Of a stretch of 64,000 bases of DNA, positions 37,594 through 61,523 are shown piece after piece. Within the stretch, counting starts at the first letter, position 1; each line of letters starts with the position of its first letter. The DNA is from Botryllus schlosseri. Its lineage: Eukaryota. The notes beneath the pieces are model-generated. The model worked only from the letters and a program-made list of their open reading frames with translations. It ran no database searches and was not told where the DNA came from. The DNA lies in the NCBI GenBank assembly GCA_051294905.1, contig CM119371.1, positions 1,924,001 to 1,988,000 on the forward strand, written 5' to 3'. The translations under genes were made by a program, and so were the position numbers.

Positions 37594-38279
37594 CTGGAAG
37601 ATAACAATATTTTTTGTTCAATATATTTTATGTATAGAAATGATCGGGCAAAAGCTATTACCTCTGTTTGGTAATATTTTATATAACCTAGAACCCAGGT
37701 ATTCAAGGAAGATATAGAGATTTATATTGTGAATATCGCAGAATCCAGTTCGGTAAGCCCGGTACCCCAAATTACCAAGATATCAATTCATTATGGTGGA
37801 GCACAGCATCGTAAATGCCGATAATGCAAGTCTATTCGTTTGCACGAACTTAACGCGAAAGCTCCACTCTCGCACCCACTCTCGGTAATGTCCATTCTCG
37901 GTAATGGTTTTCTCGGTATTGGTATAGAACCCCGTGCCCCCCCCCCCCCCCCATGCCCTGGTCTGCCGAGATTCCCCACTACTTGTTTACGACGTCAAAT
38001 TTTAGTGACTGTTTGTTATTATCTGCGTGTGCGCAGCGAGCTTGCGCGTAAGTAGAAGCGAGAAGACATGCATTATCGGCATTTACGGTTCTATACTATT
38101 ACCGGGAACGGCCAATGCCAGGAATCTAACTTACTGAGAGGACGTTGTCGAGAAATTTATTTCTCAGAATCGATACCAAATGCGGCAAAGCCGTCATGCA
38201 CATGTACATTCACACGACCTGTATATTAGGATCTTCAAAGATGACTTATTTTTCTTAAATCGCACTGTTAGGTTACCTC

Positions 38280-39379: not shown

Positions 39380-39400
39380 CAGGGGTCACCAACACGCGGC
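39380..39400 (+). mobile_element. End of a hAT-like MITE split by the Polinton-type insertion (continues at 60235)
   Basis: Rejoined sequence CAGGGGTCACCAACACGCGGC|CCGTCTGCGGCCTGCGA resembles the CAGGGG..CGGCCCG..TGCGGCC ends elsewhere in the window; the other end was not found. Confidence 0.55.
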
Positions 39401-39449
39401 AGTAGTATAGTAGATCGCACAGCCGGTGGCAGGGGCTCTTATGGGCGGG

Positions 39450-39735
39450 GTGGCGATTCGCCTGGAAACCCGGGGTGGCGATTCGCCTTTTTATACCCCC
39501 CCACTCTGGGCCGCGATTCGCCATGTGTTCTTATGGGTGCGGTCGTGATTCGCCTTTTCGGGTATAGGCTGCGGCGGTGAGGTGCCTGAAAACCCGGGGT
39601 GGTGACTCGCCTTTTTTGCTATAGGCCGCGGTCGTGATTCGCCGTGAAAACTCGTGGTCGTGACTCGTCTTTTTTGCTATAGGTGGTGGCGGTGATTCGC
39701 CATGTGTTCTTATGGGTGCGGTCGTGATTCGCACT
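39450..39735. repeat. GC-rich subterminal array of the (G)TGA(T/C)TCGCC / GCGATTCGCC motif (mirror at ~59895-60180)
   Basis: Motif recurs about every 25-30 bp (one longer gap); ~39-bp direct repeat at ~39515 and ~39694. Confidence 0.85.
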
Positions 39736-39829
39736 TTCTGCCATCTCTCGCGTGGTGTTGAATAGTCACCAACAATAACCGCACAAACGGAAACGTGGCT
39801 TGTAAGAGGATTTACGCAGTGCGTGCGAC

Positions 39830-42262
39830 CAGTGGCGGCACGTCATATAGGGCAACTGGGGCATTGCCCCACATAAAATTATGTTCAATAACAATTTAAC
39901 CATTTATAGACGCACAGCAATCAGTATATACCGAGATCACGGCGAAACCCGCATTATTCTTGTGCTTTCGCTAACAAATGCCCATACATAGCGAAGTCTC
40001 TGCGAAAATCGAATTCTCTTCTGTGTTTTCGCTTTGTGAATGCCTAGCCGGGGCTTGCCCCGGTAGCGCTCATAACAAGCTTTCACTATCTATTCTCTCA
40101 AAGCCGCGCACAATAAAGAAACGGTGATTTACTCTCTCCTATTCGTAAAATGGCCGAGCAAGTGGGGCAACTATGCCTGTCGCCCTTAAGGTGTGATGTA
40201 ACAATCGTATATCTATATCTGAACTCGGTTACCGTGATATGCGTTGACTCGACCTTTGCTGGTATATGTCGATTTTGACGGTGTTTCGCAGCATGATAAT
40301 TCTTGAAACTTGGTACGATATGTCGTGAAGGTAGTATTTAGCACTGCTCCAAGTTTCAGGCTTGCTACTCAAAGATAAGGGTGGTAATTTCGTTTCCGAA
40401 GTTCAGTGTGTGCTGATCTATCATGTACATTGTACAGCAAACAGATTTTACTCAAAAGCCGGTATTGGTCTCCATTGATTTTGACGATGTTCCATACCGA
40501 GATCGGTCATGATATTTGGCACAGTAAGTCTTAATGTTAGTATCGACCGCTGTAATAAGTTTTAAGTTTGTCACTGAACTATGTGGGTGGTAATTTCGTT
40601 TCCAAAGTCGAGTGAGAGCTGACTCTTCATTTATCGCTAACAGATTTACGCAAAAGCCGTTATTGGTCTCTATTGATTTTAACGATGTTCCATACCTAGA
40701 TCTGTCATGAGCTTTTGCACGGTATGTCTTGATTTTAGTATCGAACGCGGTGCCAAGTCTTAAAGTTGACGCTCAATGATTGAGGCAGTTATTTCGTTTT
40801 CGAGGTCGAGTATGGTAGAGATGCGCGCTGATCTGATACTTAGCCTACCTACATCATTGCGGATCTCACGGAAAAGCCGGTGTCTGTCTGTGCTAATCTA
40901 GTCTGCGTTCCATAACGAGATCGGTGATGATATTTCCAATGGTATATCTCGATGTTCGCATGAAACAGCTAACTAAGATTCTCGGTTTGCATTCAAATAT
41001 TCACATAATTTTATGTTCGCCAATGTGCATTTCACTGTGAAATTGTGTCCTTCAAACCATTTGCTTACAATCCCCTGTCAAATGCGATAGCTATTTCATT
41101 TTCGATGTCGGCTAACAGCTGATCATTCGATCAGCCTATTCCTCGATCTATTTTACTCAAAGTTCGGTGTTCGTCTGTTTGTATTGATTTTGACAGTGTA
41201 CCATGCCGGAATGGGTTATGAGATTGCGAATGCTACTTCTCGATGATTTCATGTAACAGTATGCTAAGTTTACGGCTTTCATTCATGTATTTATTGATTA
41301 ATATATTTTCCAACGGCGATTTGGCAGCAGACAGTAAGCCGTATGTGTTGCGTCACAATCTCCAGTTTCAAGGCCAAAATGTACTATGTTGTTCCGAGAC
41401 CGAAGTTCCGAGGCTGCTGTCCTTAGTTCTTCAAAGACCATTCAAATTGATGTTCTGGATTCAATATGACAGGCCCAATCTATGAGATAACAATTGCGTA
41501 TGTGTCCGAAGTCGTTGACCTTTGCAGTTAGGCTTACGCAATCTCTCGAGTTCTAGTCATTGGAATTAGTCTGGTCAAGTCAAGTGCGAACATGAATCGT
41601 ATTGAATCTTTGCTCCGTACGTAGGCTAGTTTACGCAGTTGCCTTTAGAGCGAAAATTAAAGGTCTAGAAGACTACTCCTTGTCGCTTCGACATATTCCT
41701 GTCTTTTCATTGTATCGCATTTTTGTGGTGTATTGAACTGATAAAATTGCTAATAAACCAATGATGATGATGATAGAAATTGTCCAGTCCATTGATCCAA
41801 TCGTACGCCGGGTACCTCCGCTTTGGTTGCCTATCACCTGGTCGTAACTCGTAACCACCAGCTCAGTGGTCGTAACACACCAGGATCGTGTACGAAACAC
41901 TTTCGGACGGCATATCGATTTGCGTAATCTCTAACTCTACCATGAAATCATAACGCATGCTACTAAGGATGACCTGATAATTGATTCGTGGCATAGGGAC
42001 GATTCTTAGTTCACGTACATTATGTAAAATAATCCTTTGATTAAAAAAAAATGAATAAAACATTTGTTACCACAGTTCCAGTCACGGCTCACCGGCAAAC
42101 CTCTCGCGGCACCTACGTTAAAATCACTGTTGTCGGGAAATTCATGTGACCATCATATTAAAGTTACTTTTTTACGTTGGAAAATTCCATTGTGACGTCA
42201 TGTTGATAAAAGTCGCTCGCAGCCCTTGCCCCACCACCCGATATTGTCACGAGCCGCCACTG
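39830..42262. mobile_element. Non-autonomous hAT-like element in left arm
   Basis: TIR CAGTGGCGGC..GCCGCCACTG; 8-bp TSD CGTGCGAC (39822-39829, 42263-42270); empty site present in the right arm. Confidence 0.9.
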
Positions 42263-42556
42263 CGTGCGACCTATATTCCGAATGACCTGCGCGCTGAATT
42301 GTTTCCGTGCAGCCGTGTGCTACTATCGATTATTACACTATTCCATTCAGTGCGAAATAGTTTGATCGTAAATTATTATATATGATATCGTAGTTTAGTC
42401 GTGTCAAATGTCCGATCGTGTTCTCTTTCCTCGCTATTGATTGCTAGCTGAATAATACTTTCGGCTTATTCACACCGCTGTTTCGCGCGTACAAAATAGT
42501 CTGCTGTTCACAACCACAACAAGAATCACAATTATACACATTTATACATTCATTTA

Positions 42557-42796
42557 TTACTCTGAAATCAAACTCTTCACAAAAGCACGCACAATCGTAT
42601 CATTCACTTTTTTATCATCACCAAAATTATTCAAGTATTCCTTGGCTGAAAATCCTTGAGCTCTTTTTATCAAGAATGCAATAGCATGATCTCCACACAC
42701 ATCCGAAGTTTTACTCTGTAACTGTTTCCCAGTCACAGAAAATTCATCCGGCTCCAGGAATTCGATTATCTGAGGTTTTAGTGGTCCGTGTGTCAA
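42557..42796 (-). pseudogene. Mirror copy of the adenain-like protease fragment
   Basis: Peptide identical to 59276-59515. Confidence 0.7.
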
Positions 42797-45700
42797 TTTG
42801 TCAACTTGAAATGAAACTTACTACACAAACCAAGTTGATTCGTATCTGAATGTGTTAATTCGGTACAACTCTAATCCTTTGAGAAATCTTTTCGTGATCT
42901 TTTGAATCGTACGTAACCTGAATATTACCGACACCGACTTTCAACCCCATCGAATTATTCACACATTCCACGCCGCTGTTTCTCGCCTATAGAATCAATA
43001 CCAACTAGTTGTATGAAAATCAAGAATCACAAGTATGTGCATTATACAGTTATTGTCTTTATCAACATGAAATCAAACTCTTAACAAAAACACGCAACTA
43101 ATCATTTGCCAGCTTTAAGATTATCAAAAAAATTCCAGTATTGTTGATTGAAAATCCTCGAGTCTTTATTTTTAAGAATGTTATAGTACGGTGTCGGAAT
43201 CCATTCGCGAGATGTTCTATAGGTAAATTGAGATAATCCGAAACCGAATATTTTTACTTTGGCGTAGTGTGAATTGAAATAGGATTGACAAACATGACTA
43301 CCATCTTTCCAAGTACCATTTCGATATTATACGCACATTGATTTGAAACAAGTAATGAAACATTGCAACTCTATTCGCGATCCCGCTTTCCGTTTGTCAA
43401 AGAGATATTTTAACATCTTACCATACTCAAAAGAATTATTCACAACATTAACAATTGTTAAAAATCTAGTTTTCACTTACTTGATTATATCACTGCAACT
43501 CATAAATTTGAATTAATTCATCCTGGCTGTATTCGTATGATCGGTCTTTTTTATTCAATTGTAAAAGTCGTTACTATTCTGAGGACAAAGTATTTACTAA
43601 TCGGTGCATATACGATTTGACTTGAACATATTATATTTTGAGTATACGAGATTTGAATGTCTGAACAATAACTGAGAAATAATTTATCACAATTAAATCC
43701 ATATATTACAGCGTAAAAGATATTGGAATGTCAGCAACTCGGTAAGGTCATAGTTACTACCACATTACCTAATTTACCCGACCAACTCGTCATGATCATT
43801 CCTGAAATCAACACAAACATGACCACTGACTTGAGTTAACCACAAAACAGCATCAAGTTTTAAATCCACTTGTAGCTTACGACTTATTTGAATGCGGGTT
43901 ATGTTTCGTTGTAATTGAGTGTACGGAAATAGTATTACGTCTCGACATCTCACCATCTTACCATATTCAAAGAGTCAACCACGAAAACATTGTCAAGGAA
44001 ATCCGTTTGTAACTTACCCAACCAACTCAAGCAGTCAGCCAAGCATACACGAATCCATACAATCACTAAAACCTAAAATCCATAACAAGTTCGGTTGTAC
44101 TCATATCCCTACGATGTATCATTTTTTATTCAACTTTAAAAGTCGTTACTATTCTGTAAGATAGAGGAATTACTACGCGGTATATTCTGCAAGACAAAGT
44201 AATTATTACTCGATATATTTTGTAAGACAAAAGTAATTACTACCCGGTGCAGGTGACTTGAGATTAACATAATTGTTTGAGTATACGAGATTTGAAAGTC
44301 TGATCAACGTATAGTTGCGACTTCATTTCTTACAATCGAACGCTGGTGTTATATCGAAAGTTACCATCCTGTAATCATAAGGATTGATACATAGATGTGT
44401 CATATGTAATAGTTGATCATGACTTGATTATTAAATTATTCGTGTTAATTAGACCCGGTGTTGTGGTAAAGGTTATGACAGCAACAAACTTTTCAGTACC
44501 GTTGTTATTAACATATCGAGTTGTAAAACTATGCATGTCCGAAATGTTCATGATTGGAAAATTATTCTACCTTGATACATATCACTCTGCGTATCGCGGA
44601 TATCAGAAAATATTTTACAAATGTAATTGTTTCCAGTAACCAAGACTAAAGATGAAACAACAATTTCGTTTGCTGATTAACAACCGGTGCAATACTTTAT
44701 TGTCGGAATCTGCGACATCGAATTGAAAAATACCCACATTACGCAGCACGAAAATATCACTTTGGGCTCCGGGGCGGTGTCATTTAATCTGTGTTAAACT
44801 CTGTTCACACTCTCTGTCGAAAATGCGTGAAATGCAAAAACATTACGAGGTCACACTCTAAGACTTTGATCATCAAAAAAGTAAATAGAGGTATCTTTAC
44901 TGGATGGATTCTGTTCAACTGGTCTTGGTTAATACAAAACCCATAACTGCAATATCGAAGTATGTGCTACACTGAAATCTACAAAATTGTGTTTGTATTG
45001 CTGTTCATTGTAGCGATATCGATTTGAACCTCCAGAATAATTGTCATCATGTAAGGGCAGTTGTTGTCAATTTGTACGATGTTCACTGAATGCGTACTAG
45101 AACTAATTGTGTAACACACACGATCAGAGAAATTGGAAATTTCCCCATTGTCATTCGTCACAATACTCGGCCACTAAAATACGTTACTTGGATGTGATTG
45201 AATCGCTGGCAGTTAACTCGATAAATCAAACCCCTAAGAAATTTCACTCACTCGTTGGATATTAAACAGAGTCACCTAATCGGTGTAGATCGTTTTTCTA
45301 AATGTAAATCATATAGGTCCAGCAGAAAACAATTTTCACTCACTCGGAAATGAAACCAATGTATTGGTCTCCATTCGATATTTTGTTTGTGTCAAATACT
45401 TTGCAATGAACACATTTGAGTGGTTGAGCTTTACATCATCAAGCTGTCATTTGTAAATCAAGATTTCGGTAAACTTGTAAATGTATCGTTTAACTAACCG
45501 AAATTTAGTGATTGGTGAACATACCAAACGATACACATCCACCTCCGAAATACTGCGTTGATCTTAATTTCCATCATCGTGATAATCGAAGTACATTTCT
45601 TTCGAATTCGTAACAACCGGCGTTTCTATGACATGATAAATTTTTGACAAGTTATGCTTAGAAGATTGGTTGCATATCGCGAAAAATAATATACCAATCA

Positions 45701-47027
45701 TATTAATACTCATATTACTTGAGTTTCTCCGCTTAATGTAAATGTAAACTTAGCCGTCTTTTAACATCACAAAGACATTGATAAAAAGTAGGCAATCAAA
45801 CGCTACAAGTTTAACTTTTGTAGGTTGTGTATGATTACCCCACGCAACTCATTTCTTACCAAAGGTATATGAAATATATTCATGGCACACAGAAATACTC
45901 GATATTCCCATGCTACGAATCTGTACAATGATTGGTGACGCTTTCAAACTGTTTCGATACCTCAAGACCTTTATTGTCGGAATGGATGTTCATGTATCTT
46001 AATAATCAAATAGTTCAACACAGAACTAGTATTAATAGAAACATCAGAGTTGTTTACACAAAAGTTTGTAAGTGTACAGTATGTGAATACCATGTGTAAG
46101 TTCAGCACAATTATGGTATCAATCCGAGTTTAGTTAACACAATTTACGACACCGAGGTCGCCTCATCTTTCGTAAGACAACAAACCAACCAAGGCTTCAG
46201 GATATGTCCATGTCATAGCAATAAATCAGCTACTCCAACAACAGAGTACATATGTTTTCTAGTTACGGTACTTACATCTTACACACAAGTCAATCTACTT
46301 TGCTAACGAAAAGTGCTGGGTCATCACATGGTTGTCCTCACAACAATACAACTAAAACATACTAGCAAAAAATGGTCGTTATAGTTTGCACACTAGGGTT
46401 GTCCAAAATTTGGAAAATGTTACAAATCCGTCGTTGTAATGTCTTATTCGATAGATTATTGATAAAAATCGACACTGGGCCTAAAAGAAACTCACAGGAA
46501 AGCCGTTAAGATTTCGTGCAAAGCGTTTGAAAGTAGCTGCCGAAGAATGGGCGTGTCACGGACCATAGAACGGCGAGAAGACTAGTAATCACGAAACCAC
46601 GGCTCTGGATTGGCTAATTGGCTATGCTTCAATGACCACGACAGCAGCAGCTTGATGATGAGGTGATCATGGAGTCTGCTACCGGCGGCGATTCTGACAG
46701 CACATTGTATGTAGGTTGACAGATAATGATTTAGGATTTATTCAGGGTATGTTGAGGTACGCAATACGTGATGTACGGCAACAGCTGCTTCACAAAAACG
46801 TCCAGAGCATGACTGCTTTATTGTGAAGGAAACCGCCGAAGCCTGTATGCCTTGTTTTCAACGAGGGAGAGCATAGGCGCTTATGCAAGTGGCGACGGAT
46901 TCCTAGTTTCAGAAAGGATCTATCATTATTGAATACAAATAAAAAGCTTGATAATGACACTACTTTGTCTGTGTGAGCTTATTGGGCTCAGGTTGTAGTA
47001 CATAGTTGAAGTTTTCATAGCTCTAAG

Positions 47028-48274
47028 CAGGGCTTTGGAGCCGGAGCCGGAGCCCCGGAGCCAGGCATTTTCACCGGAGCCGGAGCCGGAGCTCTACATA
47101 AAATTCTGCCGGAGCCGGAGCTGGAGCCCGTTATTTGAGGAGTAGCTCCGGCTCCGACGTATTTCATTAGATGCTATTATATATTGAACAACCACATCTG
47201 CTGATTTATCATAATTGAACAGCAGGCCTTAATATTAATGCTGTGCGCAGCAATGGCATAGAGTTAGGTGCGTTCTAGTGCAACTATGATGTTATCGACA
47301 AGTGAGAAGTATTCATTATGACGTCACAAGCCGGCAAGGCGGCACCTATGTCTTCGTTGCTACATCGGATGTTATTGACGGCTGACAGACTCTTAGATTA
47401 CTATGGATAACTAACCTACGGGTAGATTGGTAATCTGTATACACCAGGAAGGGGCAACCTTCTGGTTTATAAGGGACACATGAAATTGACGATCGAGCGC
47501 GCGGTCCACTAGCCGCGCCATGCGGGTAAAATTTACAAAGTTTATAAATAAACCAGGTCAATAATATTATCATTTGAGTATATTGCGGGTCTACTGTATA
47601 GTATACCGCCTGCTAGTCTCAGTTTGCAAGGACACGACTATTCGGCGTCTGGCCACATCTATATCGAAGGTCTCCGATAATATCCGATAATCATTTTTTG
47701 CCTACATTTCAACGTCGACGATCTTTATGCGAGCGCAAACGCGAAAAGACTTTCTCCCGTAATTGCGAATACAGTTAGACTCAATCGGGTAAATTAGGGG
47801 GTAGGCAGCAAGAAATCGTGTGAAAATTAAACACGCGAAGCGCGAAGAAAAATTTCACTACTATTTTAGTTTATTGTAATGTATGACGATTTACTGAAAA
47901 TTTGACTGGACCCTGGACCTGCCAATGCGTCGGAACTGATATTTTAGTCATCAACATCCCAAATGTCGCAGCCAGAGTTGTAAGTTATGGTTGGCATTGC
48001 AATTTTTGCTTGGCATTGCAATTTCAAAATCGGAGTAATTCGTTTTCGATCATAATAGGAAGGAAATTACATTGCGGGCCACGCAAAACCCTCTCGGGCG
48101 GGCCACATTTTCACCGCTGGTTGGCCACCCCTGATATAGACAGGCCCATTCGATAATTTCATAGCCGGAGCTGGAGCCGGAGCAGTGGTAATAATGCCGC
48201 TCCGGAGCTAATGTATGATAGAAGAAAGCGCCGGAGCCGGAGCAGTTTAAATTTCCGGCTGCTCCAAAGCCCTG
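47028..48274. mobile_element. hAT-like MITE with GGAGCC subterminal repeats (nested)
   Basis: TIR CAGGGCTTTGGAGC; 8-bp TSD GCTCTAAG. Confidence 0.9.
47445..48133. mobile_element. Older hAT-like MITE nested in 47028-48274
   Basis: Degenerate ends CAGGAAGGGGCAACC / GGTTGGCCACCCCTG; flanks GTATACAC / ATATAGAC (6 of 8 match). Confidence 0.55.
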
Positions 48275-50184
48275 GCTCTAAGGATCGGCTGAATTAGCGG
48301 GTTAGCTTGGCACTTATCAGATGCTTTTACATCAAATTGTATTCACTGGCAAGTGTTGTCAAATTCCTTAATGATGGCGCAGAAAAGAGGTGTAAAAGTA
48401 AGCACATAATATGTCACATATGATATGCTGAAGACCTTGATTATCGTGCAGAAAAGGGGTGTAAGGGAAAGCACAGACAATGTTGCATAGTGCATAGTAT
48501 CCAGCATAGTGTTTATATAATATCAAGCATAGTCCGTGCTTACATTTATACCTCGTATCTGCGGCATCATTAGGGACTTTTTAAAATACTTACAAGTGAA
48601 TTCAATTTTCTGTAAACATCTGATAAGTGCCAAGCCTAACCGTCTGATTCAACAGGTCCCTAGATCATTCAAAACTTCAACTATGTACTACAACCTGAGC
48701 CCAATAAGATCACCCAAATTGAAGTGTCATTGTTAGGCTTTATATTTGTATTCAATAATGATACAGCCTTTCTGAAACTAGGAATCCGTCGCCACTTGCA
48801 TAAGCGCCTGTGCTTTCCCTCGTTGAAAACAAGGCATATAGACTACGGCGGTTTCATACACAATAAAGCAGTCATGCGTTAGACGTTTTTGTATAGCAGC
48901 TGCTGTTTGCACATCATGTATTTCGTACCTCAACTTACCCTGAATCAATCCTAAACCATTATCTGTCAACCTACATACAATGCGCTTTCAAAAACGCCAC
49001 CGGTAGCAGACTCCTTGATCACCTCATCATCAAGCCGCTGCTGTCGTGGTCATTGAAGGATAGCCGATTAGCCAATCAAGAGCCGTGGTTTCGTGATTAC
49101 TAGTCTTCTCGCCGTTCTATGGTCGGTGGAACGCCCATTCATGGGCAGCTACTTTCAAACGCTTTGCACGAAATCTTAACGGCCTTCCTGTGAGCTTCTT
49201 TTAGACCCAGTGTCGTTTTTTATTATTAATCCATAGAATAAGATATTACAACGGAGGATTTGTAAAATTTTCCAAATTTTGGACAACCCTGTTGCACACC
49301 AACGATACATCGTACAAGTACCAAGTCTCGAGAATCCAGTTATTCAAAAAAAGTGAAAGTGTTTCTACGCCAAGTTGTTATGTTGACGAGAGCGTATATT
49401 GTAATATCATGATCGATTTGTATTCGTTGGTCACAAAATGTCACTACTCTAAATAATTATTTTTCCCTTAATCACGGTACATCGTACAAGTAAAAAGTCT
49501 TGAGGATCGAGTTATTGAAAAAAACTTTAAAGTGTGTCTCCTGCATCAAGTCGTTATGTTGACGAAAGCGTATATTGTAATATCATGGTCGATTTGCATT
49601 CGCTGGTCAGTGGTCACAAACTGTCACTACTCTAAATAATTATTTTTCACTCAAACACAAAAGCATACTTGTGGACATTCGTTTTCATCAAGCACGAGTT
49701 CAAGAAACTTACTGCGACATGAATTGTTATTTTTATGTAGTGTAAATACATAATAATTAATTTTAGTAACACTATATCAACATCATCGACTTGTGCGAAT
49801 ATATTTACATGTAGTCTTGTGGTTTTAATCGAAGCACACAGCGTGTTCTAATGTAGAGTCATCTCTATTGTACAACAACTCGGTAATCGAAATGTATGCA
49901 TTAACATTTAAACAGCGATCTTGTTACGTCACGCGAAAAATATGTTCACTATCGCGATACTCTGCACAGGGAGTGCAAATCCTTTTCACACTCGTAATAG
50001 TATATCAACGGCTACTGGCGACAACGTTTAACAATACCAACGACACTAAACATACGATACCTACCCAAGTAAAATTACCATTTTCACCTGGAGGTCAGGC
50101 GATACCAGAGTAAAAATATCATTGTCCTTTGGGGATTTATCGTTTACTCAGAGTAGCAATACATTTTCACTTGAGGGTCTATCG

Positions 50185-51690
50185 CAGGCGTGGGCAAACT
50201 TTTGAGCTCGCGGGCCGCATTCAACATCTGAATCCATTCGCGGGCCGCACTATATAAAATTGGGACTTAAACCAAAACGCAATATTGGTATTTGATTATA
50301 TAGTGAGGACATGGAGATAATAGATATGCTTATTTACAACAATCCACACATTGCTTTAAGGATATCGTACAAGCGTCAGAAACAGTGGCGAGATTTCATA
50401 GGCTGGTCGGCCTCAATAACCAATTTGTCAAAATTATAGCGATGAAAGTCGGTTGTCCCGATTCTTAGAACGGGATTGAAATTTAAATCTCAGAGCAGCG
50501 ATCCGTTCAAAGATTGACTAATTCAACTTTTGGTTCAGTTCCGGGACACACAATGCTGACAGCATCATAACCATGTTAGCTTCAAACATGCTTCTACTAT
50601 GTGTAGATAAAATATAAATACCCTAATTCTACGCATACATAGAACGAATCTACCTAAGACACGCGCGAATCGTTTGTTTAAAGGGGCACTGCGCTCTAAA
50701 AATGATGTGGTCTCAAAATGAAGGTAAAAACGAACAAAATTTTTTGGCCGCAGCCATTTCCTCCAGAACGCCACCGTAATGGAGCTGCAATTTATTGAAA
50801 TTTCTACAAGACTAGCTGCCGCGGCTGCTTAACCCGTTACATGGCACGATGTCTTCATCGTCGCACTTGCTCGACGCGATAAGGCAGTCACGCAGAGAAC
50901 GAAACTTAGACACATTTCCTTCATAACATCGGCTGACAACTATCTAAAATTCGTTCTCTGCGTGACTGCCTAATCGCGTCGAGCAAGTGCGACGGTGAAG
51001 ATATCGTGCCATGTAACGGGTTAAGCAGCCGCGGCAGCTGGTCTTGTAGAAATTTTATTAAATTGCAGCTCCATTACGGTGGCGTTCTGAAGGAAATGGC
51101 CGCGGCCAAAAATTTTTGTTCGTTTTTACCTTCAATTTGAGACCACATCATTTTTAGAGCGCAGTGCCCCTTTAAGCACATCACTGAAATGATTAAAACT
51201 GAAGTGGCCAATCTGAAATCACACTCGTGATCCGAATTATGTCAATCTCGTTTAGGATTTCTGTCATGTTTAGCAGATAAAACCTTTCAAAGTGCGTGGG
51301 CTGATGGTTTGATGGCATGGAAGGTTACGACTGTGGATGAGAGATTTTCAAATATGAAATTCAGACTAAGTACTAAGAAATATTTATGAATAAGGCGAAA
51401 ATCGCGCGAAGCGCGAAAAAAATATCCAGTTGGGCTCAGCTTCGGGCCCGTGCCTTAGAATTATCATGGTGCAATAGGTAAAGAAATAGTTTAGTCAAGT
51501 GTCCGCATTAATTCGATATTTAGTACGCATTTTATCAATATTTTAAATAAGTTTCTTTATACTCTCGCGGGCCGCACAGAAAAGTGTGGCGGGCCGTAGT
51601 TTGCCCACCCCTGCTTTAGACTCTCGCGGGCCGCACAGAACAGTGTTGCGGGCCGCATGCGGCCCGCGGGCCGTAGTTTGCCCACCCCTG
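50185..51690. mobile_element. hAT-like element with GCGGGCCGC subterminal motifs
   Basis: TIR CAGG(C/G)GTGGGCAAACT; 8-bp TSD GTCTATCG; empty site in the right arm (~54795). Confidence 0.9.
50682..51171. mobile_element. Fold-back MITE with TTAA TSD (Kolobok-like termini)
   Basis: TTAA|AGGGGCACTGCGC...GCGCAGTGCCCCT|TTAA; ~225-bp near-perfect arms. Confidence 0.75.
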
Positions 51691-51709
51691 GTCTATCGTT
51701 TCCTAGAGT

Positions 51710-51935
51710 AACAAACCCCTTTTCCTTTGGAAATATATTTTTTCCCTGGGTTACAAACCTTTTTCACTTGGAAATATATTTTTTCACCGGGTAACAAACC
51801 TTTTTCACTTGGAAATATATTTTTTCCCTGAACAACAAACCTTTTTCACTTGGAAATATATTTTTTCTCTGGGTAACAAACCTTTTTAACTTGGAAATAT
51901 ATTTTTTCCCTGAGCAACAAACCATTTTCACTTGG
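51710..51935. repeat. 41-bp minisatellite (GGAAATATATTTTTTC core); mirror at ~54600-54785
   Basis: Five core copies in the left arm and four in the right; degenerate copies flank both. Confidence 0.9.
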
Positions 51936-53726
51936 CGATCCACCGTTTACCTGAGTAAAAATATCATTTTCCTTTGGAGATCTGGCGTTTACCCAGTGTA
52001 ACAATACATTTTCTCTTGGCCATCTAGCTTTTCCTAGAGTAACAAAACCATTTTCATTTTGAAATCTGACAAACACACCTGACAATTTGGTATTTGTTGT
52101 ATTGACGATAGTTTGAAATAGATTACAACGAACAGTGACGGAAATATACACGGACCACCGGTTTCAGAGTATACCCCCATCAGTCGTATCACATCAATAT
52201 CATCGTTTAACTACATACAATATGCTCTTGTACACCGAAATGCATGTTTTGGAAAATTGGACAATAGGCTTCGATAGTTCTGTGATGTCCGGGTTCGTGC
52301 TTTGGATTTTCCAGAGTCAAAATGTCTGAATAAAACACCTCCTTGACGATGGTTGGTATGTGGATAACGGTGTTCGGAAAACGGTTGGATTTATGTCACC
52401 CATCGCGATAACAATTCCAGGTCGAGTTTTCCCTCGCGTGTTTACTAAATTGTGTCTTTATGGGTCATGTATGTCTCGACATTCAGTTTGAAATCGGAAA
52501 CCCTGATAAAGTATGTAACCGGATCCGGATATCAACTCTGAATCGATAAACCAATGAACAATATTCAAAGTAAACATGTTACACCCTGTGTTTCCACGAA
52601 AAAATACCATCCAGACACACGTCGCGCTTGTTTGCCCACATCAGTATACGCGTAAATGGAGGTGTGTGACATTGCATGCAATGTGTTGGTATACAAACAT
52701 CGATCCACAGACATTATCATAGCCGGTAGTTTTGATGTAGATCGAATGCCATCACACCCGATAACAATGTCATACCAATAAGCCACATTGGAATGACTCT
52801 GAGTCAATCTGAAGCGTGACATACAGACACACAAACATCGAACCGTAACATGGGTTATTCGCACGATGGTGAAAGTGAACTATACAGCATATACCAATAG
52901 AGCGTTCACAGTCGAATATGCGAACCACGCACAATCACATACCCTGGTTTTTGTTGGATATGTACGAAACCAATAAATCGATACATTTCTGTTCCTTGTA
53001 CGTCAATAATACAAGCGTCATTCCAATGCATCGCTCGAATGTAAGGTTCGTCGGGTGTAAAATCCATGTCAAATAACACCAAAGTGTGCTTTCCGGGTTT
53101 TATTATTTCCACCGACGCTTCTTGTCTGTGTCGTAACACTATGGTGCGGGGAGTTGAAAAACGGTGGATTGTGAAACGGATTGACATGACCAACAGAATC
53201 GACGTCAATAGACTTGTGACGATGTCGTTTCAAAATGATACCGATCTCTTGTGGTGACGACCGTTTCGAAATGTCACCGGACGAACTGGACCCTTACGAT
53301 GATGTGTTTTATGATTGCGTGTGAAATCGCGAGGTAGTGTTCTATTGTGGTGTACGATTGCAGTCTTCATTCCACAGAAATACACCTTATTGGATCACAG
53401 TATCAGTCCGAGATTTGCAGAATCACTGTTCACGATATTTATCTGGAGTCGTTATGTGGGAGTAGTGACATCCATGCATCGTGATTTAGTGAAAGACTGA
53501 TCGCAATCATTTCGAGCACCCGTGATTCGATAGTTCACCTTGGTCAAACGCTGCAGTCTCAGCAGAAAACTTCGGTGTCGACAACACGATGGATATTGAC
53601 CGATGTATCCAATTGGTCTGGGTGGTCTGTCCGGAGATAGGGCCATGACTATCTTGTAATGTTACAACACGATAACACAATCGAGTAAATCAGTGAACGG
53701 TGCCGAAATATCGATGTAATAGCGCG

Positions 53727-56700
53727 GACTCAGAGTCATTGCAATGTGGCCTATTGGTATGACATTGTTATCGGGTGTGATGACATTCGATCTACATCAA
53801 AACTACCGGCTATGATAATGTCTGTGGATCGATGTTTGTATACCAACACATTGCATGCAATGTCACACACCTCCATTTACGCGTATACTGATGTGGGCAA
53901 ACAAGCGCGACGTGTGTCTGGATGGTATTTTTTTCGTGGAAACACAGGGTGTAACATGTTTACTTTGAATATTGTTCATTGGTTTATCGATTCAGAGTTG
54001 ATATCCGGATCCGGTTACATACTTTATCAGGGTTTCCGATTTCAAACTGAATGTCGAGACATACATGACCAATAAAGACACAATATAGTAAACACGCGAG
54101 GGAAATCTCGACCTGGAATTGTTATCGCGATGGGTGACATAAATCCAACCGTTTTCCGAACACCGTTATCCACATACCAACCATCGTCAAGGAGGTGTTT
54201 TATTCAGACATTTTGACTCTGGAAAATCCAAAGCACGAACCCGGACATCACAGAACTATCGAAGCCTATTGTCCAATTTTCCAAAACATGCATTTCGGTG
54301 TACAAGAGCATATTGTATGTAGTTAAACGATGATATTGATGTGATACGACTGATGGGGGTATACTCTGAAACCGGTGGTCCGTGTATATTTCCGTCACTG
54401 TTCGTTGTAATCTATTTCAAACTATCGTCAATACAACAAATACCAAATTGTCAGGTGTGTTTGTCAGATTTCAAAATGAAAATGGTTTTGTTACTCTAGG
54501 AAAAGCTAGATGGCCAAGAGAAAATGTATTGTTACACTGGGTAAACGCCAGATCTCCAAAGGAAAATGATATTTTTACTCAGGTAAACGGTGGATCGCCA
54601 AGTGAAAATGGTTTGTTACCCAGAGAAAAAATATATTTCCAAGTGAAAAAGGTTTGTTGTTCAGGGAAAAAATATATTTCCAAGTGAAAAAGGTTTGTTA
54701 CCCGGTGAAAAAATATATTTCCAAGTGAAAAAGGTTTGTAACCCAATGAAAAAATATATTTCCAAAGGAAAAGGGGTTTGTTACTCTAGGAAACGATAGA
54801 CCCTCAAGTGAAAATGTATTGCTACTCTGAGTAAACGATAAATTCCCAAAGGACAATGATATTTTTACTCTGGTATCGCCTGACCTCCAGGTGAAAATGG
54901 TAATTTTACTTGGGTAGGTATCGTATGTTTAGTGTCGTTGGTATTGTTAAACGTTGTCGCCAGTAGCCGTTGATATACTATTACGAGTGTGAAAAGGATT
55001 TGCACTCCCTGTGCAGAGTATCGCGATAGTGAACATATTTTTCGCGTGACGTAACAAGATCGCTGTTTAAATGTTAATGCATACATTTCGATTACCGAGT
55101 TGTTGTACAATAGAGATGACTCTACATTAGAACACGCTGTGTGCTTCGATTAAAACCACAAGACTACATGTAAATATATTCGCACAACTCGATGATGTTG
55201 ATATAGTGTTACTAAAATTAATTATTATGTATTTACACTACATAAAAATAACAATTCTTGTCGCAGTAAGTTTCTTGAACTCGTGCTTGATGAAAACGAA
55301 TGTCCACAAGTATGCTTTTGTGTTTGAGTGAAAAATAATTATTTAGAGTAGTGACAGTTTGTGACCACTGACCAGCGAATGCAAATCGACCATGATATTA
55401 CAATATACGCTTTCGTCAACATAACGACTTGATGCAGGAGACACACTTTAAAGTTTTTTTCAATAACTCGATCCTCAAGACTTTTTACTTGTACGATGTA
55501 CCGTGATTAAGGGAAAAATAATTATTTAGAGTAGTGACATTTTGTGACCAACGAATACAAATCGATCATGATATTACAATATACGCTCTCGTCAACATAA
55601 CAACTTGGCGTAGAAACACTTTCACTTTTTTTGAATAACTGGATTCTCGAGACTTGGTACTTGTACGATGTATCGTTGGTGTGCAAACTATAACGACCAT
55701 TTTCTGCTAGTATGTTTTAGTTGTATTGTTGTGAGGACAACCATGTGATGACCCAGCACTTTTCGTTAGCAAAGTAGATTGACTTGTGTGTAAGATGTAA
55801 GTACCGTAACTAGAAAACATATGTACTCTGTTGTTGGAGTAGCTGATTCATTGCTATGACATGGACATATCCTGAAGCCTTGGTTGGTTTGTTGTCTTAC
55901 GAAAGATGAGGCGACCTCGGTGTCGTAAATTGTGTTAACTAAACTCGGATTGATACCATAATTGTGCTGAACTTACACATGGTATTCACATACTGTACAC
56001 TTACAAACTTTTGTGTAAACAACTCTGATGTTTCTGTTAATACTAGTTCTGTGTTGAACTATTTGATTATTAAGATACATGAACATCCATTCCGACAATA
56101 AAGGTCTTGAGGTATCGAAACAGTTTGAAAGCGTCACCAATCATTGTACAGATTCGTAGCATGGGAATATCGAGTATTTCTGTGTGCCATGAATATATTT
56201 CATATACCTTTGGTAAGAAATGAGTTGCGTGGGGTAATCATACACAACCTACAAAAGTTAAACTTGTAGCGTTTGATTGCCTACTTTTTATCAATGTCTT
56301 TGTGATGTTAAAAGACGGCAGAGTTTACATTTACATTAAGCGGAGAAACTCAAGTAATATGAGTATCAATATGATTGGTATATTATTTTTCGCGATATGC
56401 AACCAATCTTCTAAGCATAACTTGTCAAAAATTTATCATGTCATAGAAACGCCGGTTGTTACGAATTCGAAAGAAATGTACTTCGATTATCACGATGATG
56501 GAAATTAAGATCAACGCAGTATTTCGGAGGTGGATGTGTATCGTTTGGTATGTTCACCAATCACTAAATTTCGGTTAGTTAAACGATACATTTACAAGTT
56601 TACCGAAATCTTGATTTACATATGACAGCTTGATGATGTAAAGCTCAACCACTCAAATGTGTTCATTGCAAAGTATTTGACACAAACAAAATATCGAATG

Positions 56701-59700
56701 GAGACCAACACATTGGTTTCATTTCCGAGTGAGTGAAAATTGTTTTCTGCTGGACCTATATGATTTACATTTAGAAAAACGATCTACACCGATTAGGTGA
56801 CTCTGTTTAATATCCAACGAGTGAGTGAAATTTCTTAGGGGTTTGATTTATCGAGTTAACTGCCAGCGATTCAATCACATCCAAGTAACGTATTTTAGTG
56901 GCCGAGTATTGTGACGAATGACAATGGGGAAATTTCCAATTTCTCTGATCGTGTGTGTTACACAATTAGTTCTAGTACGCATTCAGTGAACATCGTACAA
57001 ATTGACAACAACTGCCCTTACATGATGACAATTATTCTGGAGGTTCAAATCGATATCGCTACAATGAACAGCAATACAAACACAATTTTGTAGATTTCAG
57101 TGTAGCACATACTTCGATATTGCAGTTATGGGTTTTGTATTAACCAAGACCAGTTGAACAGAATCCATCCAGTAAAGATACCTCTATTTACTTTTTTGAT
57201 GATCAAAGTCTTAGAGTGTGACCTCGTAATGTTTTTGCATTTCACGCATTTTCGACAGAGAGTGTGAAAAGAGTTTAACACAGATTAAATGACACCGCCC
57301 CGGAGCCCAAAGTGATATTTTCGTACTGCGTAATGTGGGTATTTTTCAATTCGATGTCGCAGATTCCGACAATAAAGTATTGCACCGGTTGTTAATCAGC
57401 AAACGAAATTGTTGTTTCATCTTTAGTCTTGGTTACTGGAAACAATTACATTTGTAAAATATTTTCTGATATCCGCGATACGCAGAGTGATATGTATCAA
57501 GGTAGAATAATTTTCCAATCATGAACATTTCGGACATGCATAGTTTTACAACTCGATATGTTAATAACAACGGTACTGAAAAGTTTGTTGCTGTCATAAC
57601 CTTTACCACAACACCGGGTCTAATTAACACGAATAATTTAATAATCAAGTCATGATCAACTATTACATATGACACATCTATGTATCAATCCTTATGATTA
57701 CAGGATGGTAACTTTCGATATAACACCAGCGTTCGATTGTAAGAAATGAAGTCGCAACTATACGTTGATCAGACTTTCAAATCTCGTATACTCAAACAAT
57801 TATGTTAATCTCAAGTCACCTGCACCGGGTAGTAATTACTTTTGTCTTACAAAATATATCGAGTAATAATTACTTTGTCTTGCAGAATATACCGCGTAGT
57901 AATTCCTCTATCTTACAGAATAGTAACGACTTTTAAAGTTGAATAAAAAATGATACATCGTAGGGATATGAGTACAACCGAACTTGTTATGGATTTTAGG
58001 TTTTAGTGATTGTATGGATTCGTGTATGCTTGGCTGACTGCTTGAGTTGGTTGGGTAAGTTACAAACGGATTTCCTTGACAATGTTTTCGTGGTTGACTC
58101 TTTGAATATGGTAAGATGGTGAGATGTCGAGACGTAATACTATTTCCGTACACTCAATTACAACGAAACATAACCCGCATTCAAATAAGTCGTAAGCTAC
58201 AAGTGGATTTAAAACTTGATGCTGTTTTGTGGTTAACTCAAGTCAGTGGTCATGTTTGTGTTGATTTCAGGAATGATCATGACGAGTTGGTCGGGTAAAT
58301 TAGGTAATGTGGTAGTAACTATGACCTTACCGAGTTGCTGACATTCCAATATCTTTTACGCTGTAATATATGGATTTAATTGTGATAAATTATTTCTCAG
58401 TTATTGTTCAGACATTCAAATCTCGTATACTCAAAATATAATATGTTCAAGTCAAATCGTATATGCACCGATTAGTAAATACTTTGTCCTCAGAATAGTA
58501 ACGACTTTTACAATTGAATAAAAAAGACCGATCATACGAATACAGCCAGGATGAATTAATTCAAATTTATGAGTTGCAGTGATATAATCAAGTAAGTGAA
58601 AACTAGATTTTTAACAATTGTTAATGTTGTGAATAATTCTTTTGAGTATGGTAAGATGTTAAAATATCTCTTTGACAAACGGAAAGCGGGATCGCGAATA
58701 GAGTTGCAATGTTTCATTACTTGTTTCAAATCAATGTGCGTATAATATCGAAATGGTACTTGGAAAGATGGTAGTCATGTTTGTCAATCCTATTTCAATT
58801 CACACTACGCCAAAGTAAAAATATTCGGTTTCGGATTATCTCAATTTACCTATAGAACATCTCGCGAATGGATTCCGACACCGTACTATAACATTCTTAA
58901 AAATAAAGACTCGAGGATTTTCAATCAACAATACTGGAATTTTTTTGATAATCTTAAAGCTGGCAAATGATTAGTTGCGTGTTTTTGTTAAGAGTTTGAT
59001 TTCATGTTGATAAAGACAATAACTGTATAATGCACATACTTGTGATTCTTGATTTTCATACAACTAGTTGGTATTGATTCTATAGGCGAGAAACAGCGGC
59101 GTGGAATGTGTGAATAATTCGATGGGGTTGAAAGTCGGTGTCGGTAATATTCAGGTTACGTACGATTCAAAAGATCACAAAAAGATTTCTCAAAGGATTA
59201 GAGTTGTACCGAATTAACACATTCAGATACGAATCAACTTGGTTTGTGTAGTAAGTTTCATTTCAAGTTGACAAATTGACACACGGACCACTAAAACCTC
59301 AGATAATCGAATTCCTGGAGCCGGATGAATTTTCTGTGACTGGGAAACAGTTACAGAGTAAAACTTCGGATGTGTGTGGAGATCATGCTATTGCATTCTT
59401 GATAAAAAGAGCTCAAGGATTTTCAGCCAAGGAATACTTGAATAATTTTGGTGATGATAAAAAAGTGAATGATACGATTGTGCGTGCTTTTGTGAAGAGT
59501 TTGATTTCAGAGTAACAAATGAATGTATAAATGTGTATACTTGTGATTCTTGTTGTGGTTGTGAACAGCAGAGTATTTTGTAGGCGCGAAACAGCGGTGT
59601 GAATAAGCCGAAAGTATTATTCAGCTAGCAATCAATAGCGAGGAAAGAGAACACGATCGGACATTTGACACGACTAAACTGCGATATCATATATAATAAT

Positions 59701-60228
59701 TTACGATCAAACTATTTCGCACTGAATGGAATAGTGTAATAATCGATAGTAGCACACGGCTGCACGGAAACAATTCAGCGCGCAGGTCATTCGGAATATA
59801 GGTCGCACGCACTGCGAAAATCCTCTTACAAGCCACGTTTCCGTTTGTGCGGTTATTGTTGGTGACTATTCAACACCACGCGAGAGATTGCTGAAAGTGC
59901 GAATCACGACTGCACCCATAAGAACACATGGCGAATCACCGCCTCCACCTATAGCAAAAAAGACGAGTCACGACCACGAGTTTTCACGGCGAATCACGAC
60001 CGCGGCCTATAGCAAAAAAGGCGAGTCACCACCCCGGGTTTTCAGGCACCTCACCGCCGCAGCCTATACCCGAAAAGGCGAATCACGACCGCACCCATAA
60101 GAACACATGGCGAATCGCGGCCCAGAGGGGGGGTCTAAAATGGCGAATCGCCACCCCGGGTTTCCAGGCGAATCGCCACCCCGCCCATAAGAGCCCCTGC
60201 CACCGGTTGTGCGATCTACTATACTACT
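53727..60228. repeat. Right arm of giant inverted repeat (6502 bp, uninterrupted)
   Basis: Reverse complement of the left arm, with scattered substitutions only. Confidence 0.95.
59276..59515 (+). pseudogene. C-terminal fragment of adenain-like (Polinton/adenovirus-type) cysteine protease
   Basis: QLQSKTSDVCGDHAIAFL..RAQG.S..EYLNNF.DDKKVNDTIV..FV resembles the Q-x4/5-S-x-x-C-G...ND pattern of these proteases; the N-terminal catalytic-His region is absent. Confidence 0.7.
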
Positions 60229-61523
60229 CGCGGCCCGTCTGCGGCCTGCGACGTGATTTGAGATTTCGGAAGAAAGCTAAGAAAACCAATTTGAAATGCT
60301 GAAATTGACTACAGTTTAAAAATGTTGCTGTTTTTTTTTCAAAATAAGCTATTTCCTTGTGCCTAATATCACTATTCGTCACTAGCAAAAACGGCTGTGT
60401 TGATGGCAACAACACTCCATCGAGGGAGAATCAGCTGATATGAATGGGCAGTCTTGACTTGCAATGGCGCAAACACTGACAAGACCGAGACGCTTCGAAA
60501 ACGGCTTGGGGCAGTGGTTCCTGAAACTGGGGAGCGCGAAAGCATCAGAAGGGGAGGCGGCGGTGCGCTCAACTGAGGGGCGCGAGGGATACTCCCGTGA
60601 TTTCAACGAGCAATGACCTCAAACTTGAGTTACATGCTGGTTCCGTACACAAGTAACACAAATAACTTGAAAGGTATGGCTATGATATTATTTTTCATCC
60701 ACGGGCCTCAATTGAGTTCCGCCCCTCAATTGGGCAATTGTGGGATTTGGGATGTGGCAGTTACGTCTTGTGTTCCACTACTCGAAGTGCTATATGGTGA
60801 GACGAGCTATTTTCTCCTTAGACAGAGTGTCACAAGGTCTAAAAGATTGAGAAGTACTGATATAAAAGTCCGGTGTCGAAAATATTCGAACCAGTCATGG
60901 TCTTAAATTGGGATAATCGTCAGTGAATTCTTAGAAATTCCAGCTGGTATATTCTCGATTTAGGGCAGGGGCGCCACACTCAAATTCGGCCACATCGGTA
61001 TATGACGAGCCAGATATCGGCATCACTCCATGTTACCTAAAAACCTGCGAAATTCATTTCCAATCTAATCCAGGCTCGCGTTTGAAGCTGAACTTTGTGA
61101 GGCATATTTCTCTATCACCCTCTCCTGACCCATATCACTATTCCGCCAACATTTTGTTATATCCTGGCTGTTATTGAAAAGCTTCTGACCCCGGCGGCAG
61201 ATCAATCTCCTTCACTGGAAAACCATTACTGCTGTATATTTTTCTAAGGAAACTGCTGCACGCAACTTGTTGCTGTTGTTGTTGCAGGTACGGTACTCTC
61301 GTGTTATTGCATTATGACGTAACCCACCTCACAGACGGTTAACCATAGGTGACGAAAAGTGATGCGGCAGCAATAATTGCGTATAAATCACAAAGCTGTA
61401 TTAGCCAGAGGTGTTACGGTATCTCGGCGTCTTATAACGTAATAATGTAAGCTGCGTCGGGTGCTGCTATAATGTTAGGAGCGAATATATTCGAATGTCC
61501 ACGATACTGACCAGTCATCAACT

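Follow-up and report, generated by a model that had tools for sequence, protein, structure and literature searches.

How does a transposon come to consist almost entirely of its own mirror image? This question is raised by the element at positions 39401-60228 of a 64,000-nucleotide stretch of Botryllus schlosseri DNA (GenBank assembly GCA_051294905.1, contig CM119371.1, positions 1,924,001 to 1,988,000 of the forward strand; this whole stretch is called the window below). A first-pass annotation, made from the sequence alone, explained it as a Polinton/Maverick derivative that had arisen when one end of a parent element was copied back in a single accident. The ancestry and the architecture withstand our analysis, whereas the single accident does not: the element is probably an old, decayed member of a large, long-lived family of non-autonomous fold-back Polintons, a satellite mobilized in trans. 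A typical member is 13-15 kb long, with two mirror arms of 6.1-6.9 kb, a unique center of ~0.9 kb, AGTAGT… ends and a 6-bp target-site duplication (TSD), and members carry either no genes or a small protease gene only.

Architecture of the element and its genome-wide family

Both termini of the window element read AGTAGTATAGTAGATCGCAC, at 39401 (+) and 60228 (-), and both flanks carry the hexamer CGCGGC, as the first reading had claimed. This 20-mer matches nowhere else in the window, even at up to five mismatches, which means that there are no hidden internal termini and that the palindrome is not a pair of head-to-head elements. The features expected of Polinton ends are found here, namely 5'-AG…CT-3' termini with a short terminal tandem repeat (AGTAGT… at both ends), terminal inverted repeats (TIRs) and a TSD of 6 bp. 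Self-BLAST of the element, with substitutions counted per block, pairs the arms in four collinear inverted blocks of 430, 4,133, 893 and 1,053 bp. The arms are ~6.5 kb each, the inverted repeat makes up 93% of the element, and arm-to-arm differences total 53 substitutions and three insertions. The latter, all in the left arm, are unrelated, separate transposons, each with its own TSD, and the right arm is free of them; without them the 21-kb element shrinks to ~13.9 kb. Self-BLAST blocks and insertion TSDs thus bear out the two arms, the 921-bp spacer and the three later insertions that had been proposed. The features are as follows.

39395-39400, no strand: left TSD CGCGGC, same hexamer at 60229-60234
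39401-39830, + strand: outer left arm, counterpart of the TIR of autonomous elements (75-87% identity to their TIRs), starting with AGTAGTATAGTAGATCGCAC; pairs with 60228-59801 (8 substitutions in 428 positions)
39831-42260, no strand: insertion 1 with GTGGCGGC ends and a TSD of 10-11 bp, absent from the right arm; presumably Mutator-like, a label taken from the TSD length
42261-46393, + strand: main block of the left arm, non-coding apart from the protease fragment; pairs with 59811-55679 (16 substitutions in 4133 positions, 99.6% identity)
42560-42802, - strand: 3' fragment of an adenain-like protease, residues 108-188 of a 188-aa frame (95% identity, E 1.7e-48)
46394-49291, no strand: insertion 2, hAT-like and non-autonomous, ends TAGGGTTG…CAACCCTG (TAGGG…CCCTG), TIRs of ~630 bp, 8-bp TSD TTGCACAC
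49292-50184, + strand: left-arm block holding a tandem duplication of 176 bp, whose mirror image is present in the right arm; pairs with 55686-54794 (3 substitutions in 893 positions)
50185-51690, no strand: insertion 3, hAT-like, ends CAGGCGTGGGCAAAC / CAGGGGTGGGCAAAC, 8-bp TSD GTCTATCG
51691-52805, + strand: inner left arm with a 41-bp tandem array (51694-52065) and a conserved center module; 51753-52805 pairs with 54781-53727 (26 substitutions in 1053 positions, mostly within the array)
52806-53726, no strand: spacer, the unique 921-bp loop of the palindrome, delimited by self-comparison
53727-60228, - strand: right arm, uninterrupted, 6,502 bp, mirror of the left arm
59270-59512, + strand: right-arm copy of the protease fragment, found by tblastn
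60229-60234, no strand: right TSD CGCGGC, same hexamer at 39395-39400

The folded form occurs throughout the 495.5-Mb genome. A query of the terminal 430 bp picked out matches that form inverted pairs, at distances of 11-30 kb, on many contigs, with at least 82 matches among those listed (the best 40 of 2,240 candidates were scored). Seven relatives were retrieved whole and all seven have two inverted arms, which in five of them are 6.1-6.9 kb long and enclose a center of 0.9 kb.

Copy at C1:1583252: arm 6,686 bp, arm identity 99.64%, spacer 921 bp
Copy at C1:144232: arm 6,897 bp, arm identity 99.74%, spacer 955 bp
Copy on C14: arm 6,703 bp, arm identity 99.94%, spacer 909 bp
Copy on C11: arm 6,278 bp, arm identity 99.94%, spacer 880 bp
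Copy on C8: arm 6,138 bp, arm identity 99.90%, spacer 937 bp
Copy on C5: arm 3,150 bp, arm identity 99.59%, asymmetric center of 4.9 kb
Copy on C12: arms of two subfamilies, 77-96% identity, spacer 921 bp

Six of the seven fold-back pairs checked, the window's among them, have perfect and mutually different 6-bp TSDs (CGCGGC in the window, CATGTA, CGTGTG, CTTGTT, ATCGTT and AACGTG), and five of six bases agree in the remaining pair, on C25; the C5 copy, for which a single terminus was found, is not part of this count. Together with three autonomous elements described below, perfect TSDs flank nine of ten related pairs. Because distinct 6-bp duplications occur at separate loci, the folded form itself integrates at new sites. 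The earlier alternative, that the TSD implied either insertion of an already folded molecule or rearrangement in place, is thereby decided for the former, and the search that had been proposed for other fold-back copies with different TSDs has succeeded.

Coordinates and motif counts were used for the family census. The terminal pattern AGTAGT-N6-GATCGSNC occurs 1,177 times on the forward and 1,166 times on the reverse strand (2,343 in total; control 4 and 3). A spacer 30-mer, allowing up to two mismatches, was counted 208 + 250 = 458 times and an integrase-gene 30-mer 38 + 54 = 92 times, with no matches to either control. These counts give a rough ratio of 5:1 between spacer-bearing palindromes and integrase-bearing elements, with one motif for each. 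When the whole spacer was used as a query, all 40 scored matches (the best 40 of 1,040 candidates) were full length at 92-100% identity. On C1, a bracket-matching script joined the first 100 termini among those listed into 40 pairs, of which 19 span 13.0-15.5 kb, 6 are shorter and 15 longer, with nesting up to three deep. Twelve of these C1 pairs are free of nested pairs and contain the spacer motif: seven of 13.3-15.5 kb and five, the window copy among them, of 20.8-33.8 kb. The family comprises at least several hundred palindromes and accounts for at least about 1.3% of the genome (458 copies of ~14 kb in 495.5 Mb). Members also nest in each other, for instance an autonomous copy within a fold-back arm at C11:4984301-5004300 and three levels of termini at C1:16768420-16810257.

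All five copies that carry the window spacer have the same junctions, with arm homology ending at 52805 and resuming at 53727, while elsewhere copies with this common junction differ by up to ~25% and by many insertions and deletions. Identity between copies is 72-100% where they can be aligned, many 250-bp tiles have no match at all, and arm content is a mosaic between subfamilies. The sharing of one arm/spacer junction by diverged copies points to one founding event for the spacer-bearing palindromes: the palindrome appears to have formed once, long ago, and to have evolved as a lineage since. The proposed single copy-back accident at this locus is incompatible with a family of this size and with common junctions in copies ~25% diverged.

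The spacer was also detected in 20 sequencing runs from 12 studies, labeled as organisms A, B and C and one metagenome. Three of these runs (X6, X14 and X17) belong by label to two other organisms and the metagenome, and contig pieces at least 99% alike make up 19 of the 39 from X6 and 42 of the 135 from X14. In three runs the short-read contigs reach 29-30 of the 30 bins, but as short pieces, none of which crosses the spacer. One contig, from an independent run, extends across the junction of left arm and spacer by 31 + 52 nt. No RNA run is among those listed as containing the spacer.

Coding remnants and the gene-carrying Polinton partner

None of the 24 open frames of at least 60 aa in the window element matched Pfam. 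With the 15 open reading frames of an autonomous relative as tblastn queries, only protease residues 108-188 were matched, once per arm; the partner polymerase and integrase frames gave nothing in the element at E values up to 1. The virion module (capsid, packaging ATPase and protease) is therefore represented by the last 81 protease codons of each arm, in which the region of the catalytic Cys is present and that of the His is gone. The claim that only protease remnants survive is accordingly upheld, and the element is a Polinton derivative that falls outside the strict definition given in an excerpt of PMC5499653. The 86-aa frame that holds the fragment (42557-42817, - strand) has no Pfam or PDB match, and among PDB sequences neither that fragment, nor the full frame of the protease, nor either half of the polymerase had a match above chance level. 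Some other fold-backs keep a whole protease frame of 191-194 aa on both arms. A weak second copy of the protease C-terminus (43068-43190 and 58882-59004; 40% over 45 aa, E 0.17) sits ~300 bp inside the first, and hints that the arm interior may hold older reiterated pieces of the subterminal region.

The 86-aa frame as a query yielded 150 scored places in the genome (of 467 candidates), which a script sorted into 98 singletons, 76 of them within a 188-aa open frame, and 26 inverted pairs, with a spacing of 11.4-14.2 kb in 20 of these. The integrase motif is enclosed by two of the 26 inverted pairs. Around the singletons lie elements of 14.3-15.1 kb with 549-bp TIRs and ends reading AGTAGTAGTATAGATCG…; three of them measure 14.3, 14.8 and 15.1 kb, and perfect 6-bp TSDs (TCCGTA, GGCCCA and GTAGAA) flank all three examined. 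The partner element, for example at C15:3416563-3431379, encodes an integrase with rve (PF00665, E 1.7e-16) and chromodomain (PF00385, E 2.3e-9) and an A32/helicase-like ATPase (RNA_helicase at 22.3 bits, just above the cut-off; Pox_A32 at 17, below it). Its frame of ~1,130 aa can be aligned (E 6e-71 and 1e-29) to a protein of 1,130 aa in which PF03175 is recognized (27.0 bits, cut-off 25.8), and the alignment includes a D..SLY-type motif, although the frame itself has no direct match to PF03175 or to PDB sequences. The 188-aa frame and a 432-aa protein have no Pfam match; their atlas look-alikes, which are leads rather than alignments, carry PF00770 (Peptidase_C5) and PF21738 (double jelly-roll capsid), respectively, with a score of 0.98 each. 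A whole-genome profile search with PF03175 and PF00770 gave no matches and its controls were silent too, which makes it uninformative. By gene content the partner is a Polinton/Maverick, with indirect assignments of polymerase (a pPolB homologue), capsid and protease; the derivation of the window element from this group, as first suggested, is supported by these genes, the related ends and the 6-bp TSDs.

The window arms share two segments with the partner, the TIR (75-87% identity) and 424 bp at 42365-42788 (89-93% identity) that contain protease codons 108-188. The C8 copy has more in common with the partner, ~1.0 kb that includes the whole protease frame. By this sequence comparison, both ends of the palindrome are seen to derive from the protease-side end of an autonomous element, in agreement with the idea that the two arms represent the same element end. 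The terminal AGTAGT-N6-GATCG core is common to the fold-backs and the integrase- and polymerase-bearing elements. Within a 58-bp tandem array of the window TIR (39401-39830), strict motifs of the type GGTGAYTCGCC are reiterated six times, compared with seven times in an autonomous TIR (L051:963-1511), and the motif has no match in the 39.4-kb flank on either strand. It is missing from two other ends, of the C8 fold-back and of an autonomous element on C11, so that at least two TIR classes exist. An autonomous partner with the same TIR had been sought; related ends were found, whereas a near-identical TIR was not seen among the four elements examined, the best reaching 88%.

Mirrored evolution of the arms and other features

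Arm-to-arm identity is 99.59-99.94% in six of the seven relatives, and five segment trees place the left and right arm of each copy as sister branches, C12 excepted. In nine four-way alignments, 602 of the substitutions that separate two copies are mirrored on both arms and 27 occur on one arm only (96% mirrored). The gap columns of these alignments comprise 314 mirrored and 487 unmirrored ones, 486 of the latter coming from one block that extends into the spacer, an extraction artifact. A close pair, ~1% apart over most of the arm, has 278 mirrored versus 14 one-arm substitutions and 676 mirrored versus 8 unmirrored gap columns. Structural changes are mirrored as well, for instance the 176-bp tandem duplication and a rearranged segment. 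Between inverted pairs the open frame of the protease remnant varies from 80 to 194 aa in length; within a pair, the two arms have equal lengths in 18 of 26 cases. The two arms thus evolve in concert, and these mirrored changes mean that their homogenization is fast relative to the divergence of lineages.

The window copy has the most divergent arms among those measured, apart from the unlike arms of C12, and in addition carries the three one-arm transposons. Fourteen of its arm-to-arm differences were checked against other copies: twelve are private to one arm, one has both states elsewhere and one has neither. The private differences and one-arm insertions fit simple decay after integration. 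On this evidence homogenization before or during transposition is mildly favored over continuing chromosomal gene conversion, though not decisively. The copy at C12:23553222-23568425 departs from the pattern. Its left arm is 97-99% like the window arms and its right arm belongs to another subfamily; the two are 84-90% identical, except for the inner 1.15 kb (96% alike), and the TSD is perfect. We read it from its sequence as a recombinant between two fold-back lineages, and its unlike arms within a perfect TSD indicate that recombinant palindromes can integrate.

A 75-nt stretch of the conserved center module (52654-52728, mirrored at 53804-53878), ~80-150 bp from the spacer, is invariant in six copies. 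It contains a perfect 16-bp palindrome, ACATTGCATGCAATGT, and is a candidate protein-binding site. Folded as single-stranded DNA, the spacer has no special structure (z = +1.39), and Rfam gave no match on the window element at gathering score. A 107-aa spacer frame (52906-53229, minus strand) is open in six copies but unlikely to be a gene: it does not begin with a start codon, and it has no Pfam match. Between distant copies the ratio of non-synonymous to synonymous differences per site (pN/pS) is 0.5-0.8, and close pairs differ by three to six non-synonymous changes and no synonymous ones. Outside the element, a 501-aa frame 1.8 kb to its left (36122-37627, - strand) has a NACHT domain (PF05729, E 9.5e-15) and probably represents one exon of a host gene of NLR-like type, while retroelement frames lie just to its right (61479-63794, + strand; RVT_1 at 62473-63393, E 6.2e-32).

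Explanations, mechanism and meaning

The same element end on both arms of a unique loop is copy-back architecture, and one copy-back defective genome integrated once, or a rearrangement at this locus, would produce it. However, the same architecture and junctions at many loci with different TSDs, the 458 spacer matches and the divergence of copies by up to ~25% refute such a one-off origin, to which we give almost no weight; segmental duplication of the locus is excluded by the differing flanks and TSDs. Long near-perfect palindromes are also a familiar class of assembly artifact, whether as mirrored or collapsed repeats or through chimeric long reads, and the contig pieces of other runs are short, none spanning the spacer. 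At this locus a mirrored artifact is excluded by the 53 substitutions between the arms and the three insertions with TSDs of their own. The unique flanks with a TSD on either side, the same layout at dozens of loci on many contigs, the recurrence of the spacer across runs and studies and the independent contig across the left junction also stand against an artifact, which we find scarcely credible. The Polinton likeness might instead be fortuitous in a fold-back of another DNA-transposon superfamily with 6-bp TSDs, for the element has no transposase of its own and its TIR is only 75-88% like the autonomous TIRs examined. Such a coincidence is very improbable given the terminal core common to integrase- and polymerase-bearing elements, the 424 bp, including the protease 3' end, at 89-93% identity to Polinton partners, and the same reiterated TIR motif in both.

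A mobile family whose arms are kept alike by chromosomal gene conversion, without any hairpin or strand-switch step, predicts mirrored substitutions and insertions or deletions between inverted repeats and would also suit the uneven arm divergence of the window copy (0.34-0.39% in the middle, 1.9% in the TIR). On the other side stand the three arm-specific insertions and the 12 of 14 differences private to one arm, the fact that arm divergence is greatest in the copy that holds nested transposons, in line with simple decay, and the C12 arms, which stay 10-16% apart. None of these is decisive, and we consider gene conversion alone rather unlikely. Several observations weigh against our preferred reading, the trans-mobilized fold-back satellite. 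The C12 copy shows that an integration or cycle does not always require identical arms, and in-situ gene conversion between arms could likewise yield mirrored changes. Neither at the nucleotide level nor in translation does the partner match the spacer or the other ~5.7 kb of an arm, so that copying back of a parent end is traceable here for only ~0.8 kb per 6.5-kb arm. None of the four autonomous elements examined has a near-identical TIR (the best match, 88%, extends over 194-258 bp). The copy-number ratio comes from single 30-mers, with the first 100 matches of each list examined, and the RNA evidence is negligible: about 3% of one single-cell run contained 30 reads at 90-99% likeness, with no read reaching 99%. 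Finally, trans-mobilization, replication and the hairpin intermediate are steps that we infer.

As a mechanism for the fold-back satellite, we suggest that a protein-primed polymerase, presumably by template switching, or just as plausibly panhandle repair after loss of the other end, copied one element end back in the founder. Integration, and probably replication too, would be provided in trans by the integrase and pPolB of autonomous elements that recognize the common ends. In a model proposed for Polintons, a single-stranded intermediate pairs its TIRs into a racket, protein-primed synthesis is aided by a terminal repeat of 1-3 bp, and the TSD has 6 bp (PMC4196379, excerpt); the ends of the window family start with (AGT)2-3. 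Protein-primed replicons can slide or jump back on terminal repeats (PMC4974454, excerpt). The displaced single strand of a palindrome might snap back along its whole length into a hairpin, an extreme racket, in which mismatches would be repaired or one arm re-copied from the other, leaving identical arms. Snapping back would at once re-create a duplex origin, with two identical ends for the helper to recognize, and after integration the arms would merely decay.

Un-nested fold-backs measure 13.2-15.5 kb and autonomous elements 14.3-15.1 kb. Non-coding transposon derivatives usually shrink; the retention of a helper-like length despite mosaic non-coding arms suggests, in this small sample, a size constraint such as packaging, with common descent as the dull alternative. 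With these similar lengths and the common ends, the helper may both replicate and package the palindromes. A further step is to regard them as satellite or defective-interfering genomes that an active animal polintovirus encapsidates and that are now inherited as a lineage. We put this forward tentatively, as a possible but on balance doubtful extension. If it is true, the protein-primed polymerase of the helper replicates the palindromes and its capsid packages them, a 6.5-kb hairpin of the displaced strand mirrors every mutation, and packaging explains why 13-15.5 kb are kept without shrinkage of the kind seen in miniature inverted-repeat transposable elements (MITEs). To our knowledge, neither the replication mode of Polintons nor particle formation by animal Polintons has ever been shown directly. 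If the palindromes are such encapsidated genomes, the mirrored mutations and the lengths would be the first genomic read-out of Polinton replication and virion formation.

Among known systems, autonomous Polintons share with the window family the AG…CT ends with a terminal tandem repeat (AGT)2-3, the 6-bp TSD and a homologous TIR and protease 3' end. They are described as 13-25 kb long with TIRs of 100-1500 bp and TSDs of 5-8 bp (10.1101/2023.08.22.554363, excerpt). The window element, in contrast, has no polymerase, integrase, ATPase or capsid gene, its interior is unrelated non-coding DNA, and the inverted repeat takes up 93% of it rather than a few per cent. Butterfly Polintons have TIRs of ~2 kb that contain hexon and adenain genes (10.1101/2025.02.07.637071, excerpt). 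In them, too, the inverted repeat has expanded toward the interior from the end with protease and capsid, so that genes are doubled, and by analogy they look like intermediate stages; however, they are autonomous with a large unique core, whereas here all but 0.9 kb is repeated and genes are lost.

Subgenomic molecules of phage phi29 are palindromic, and the genomes of incomplete adenovirus particles are similar. Those of phi29 are 1-8 kb long, come from one genome end and are ascribed to template switching by the polymerase (PMC4974454, excerpt). Like copy-back or snap-back defective genomes, the window family has one genome end twice, inverted around a unique loop, has lost genes and, by analogy, would have two identical origins and depend on a helper. 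Defective genomes of this type are recurrent and short-lived, whereas here we see a single old lineage with subfamilies and hundreds of germline integrations. The family behaves like an endogenized, heritable counterpart of a defective-interfering or satellite polintovirus genome, as far as this analogy holds.

Foldback (FB) transposons and MITEs with long TIRs are non-coding, consist mostly of two inverted arms and are moved in trans. FB elements, which are mentioned in an excerpt of PMC6431247, resemble the window family in being non-coding and multi-copy, with two long inverted arms and TSDs, and the palindromes likewise outnumber their partner (458 to 92 by motif), which would be their source of enzymes. 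They differ from it in superfamily and integration chemistry and in having arms made mainly of tandem repeats rather than complex sequence; moreover, unlike FB elements and MITEs, the window family stays near the helper length of 14-15 kb. Sex-chromosome palindromes are large, are homogenized by arm-to-arm gene conversion and are fixed at single loci. The fold-backs share with them arms 99.6-99.9% identical and mirrored changes, but are mobile, have TSDs and number in the hundreds. In the literature searched, which did not extend to subscription journals or Repbase, we came across no Polinton derivative described as palindromic, fold-back or defective-interfering.

Mirrored arm evolution and helper-like length are the two unusual properties of this fold-back Polinton satellite family. 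Several hundred gene-less palindromes that have the ends of about ninety gene-carrying Polintons constitute a natural experiment, from which testable predictions follow: hairpin intermediates, replication in trans and size-limited packaging. Read as a trans-mobilized satellite, the family would represent a new kind of parasite-of-a-parasite among eukaryotic mobile DNA.

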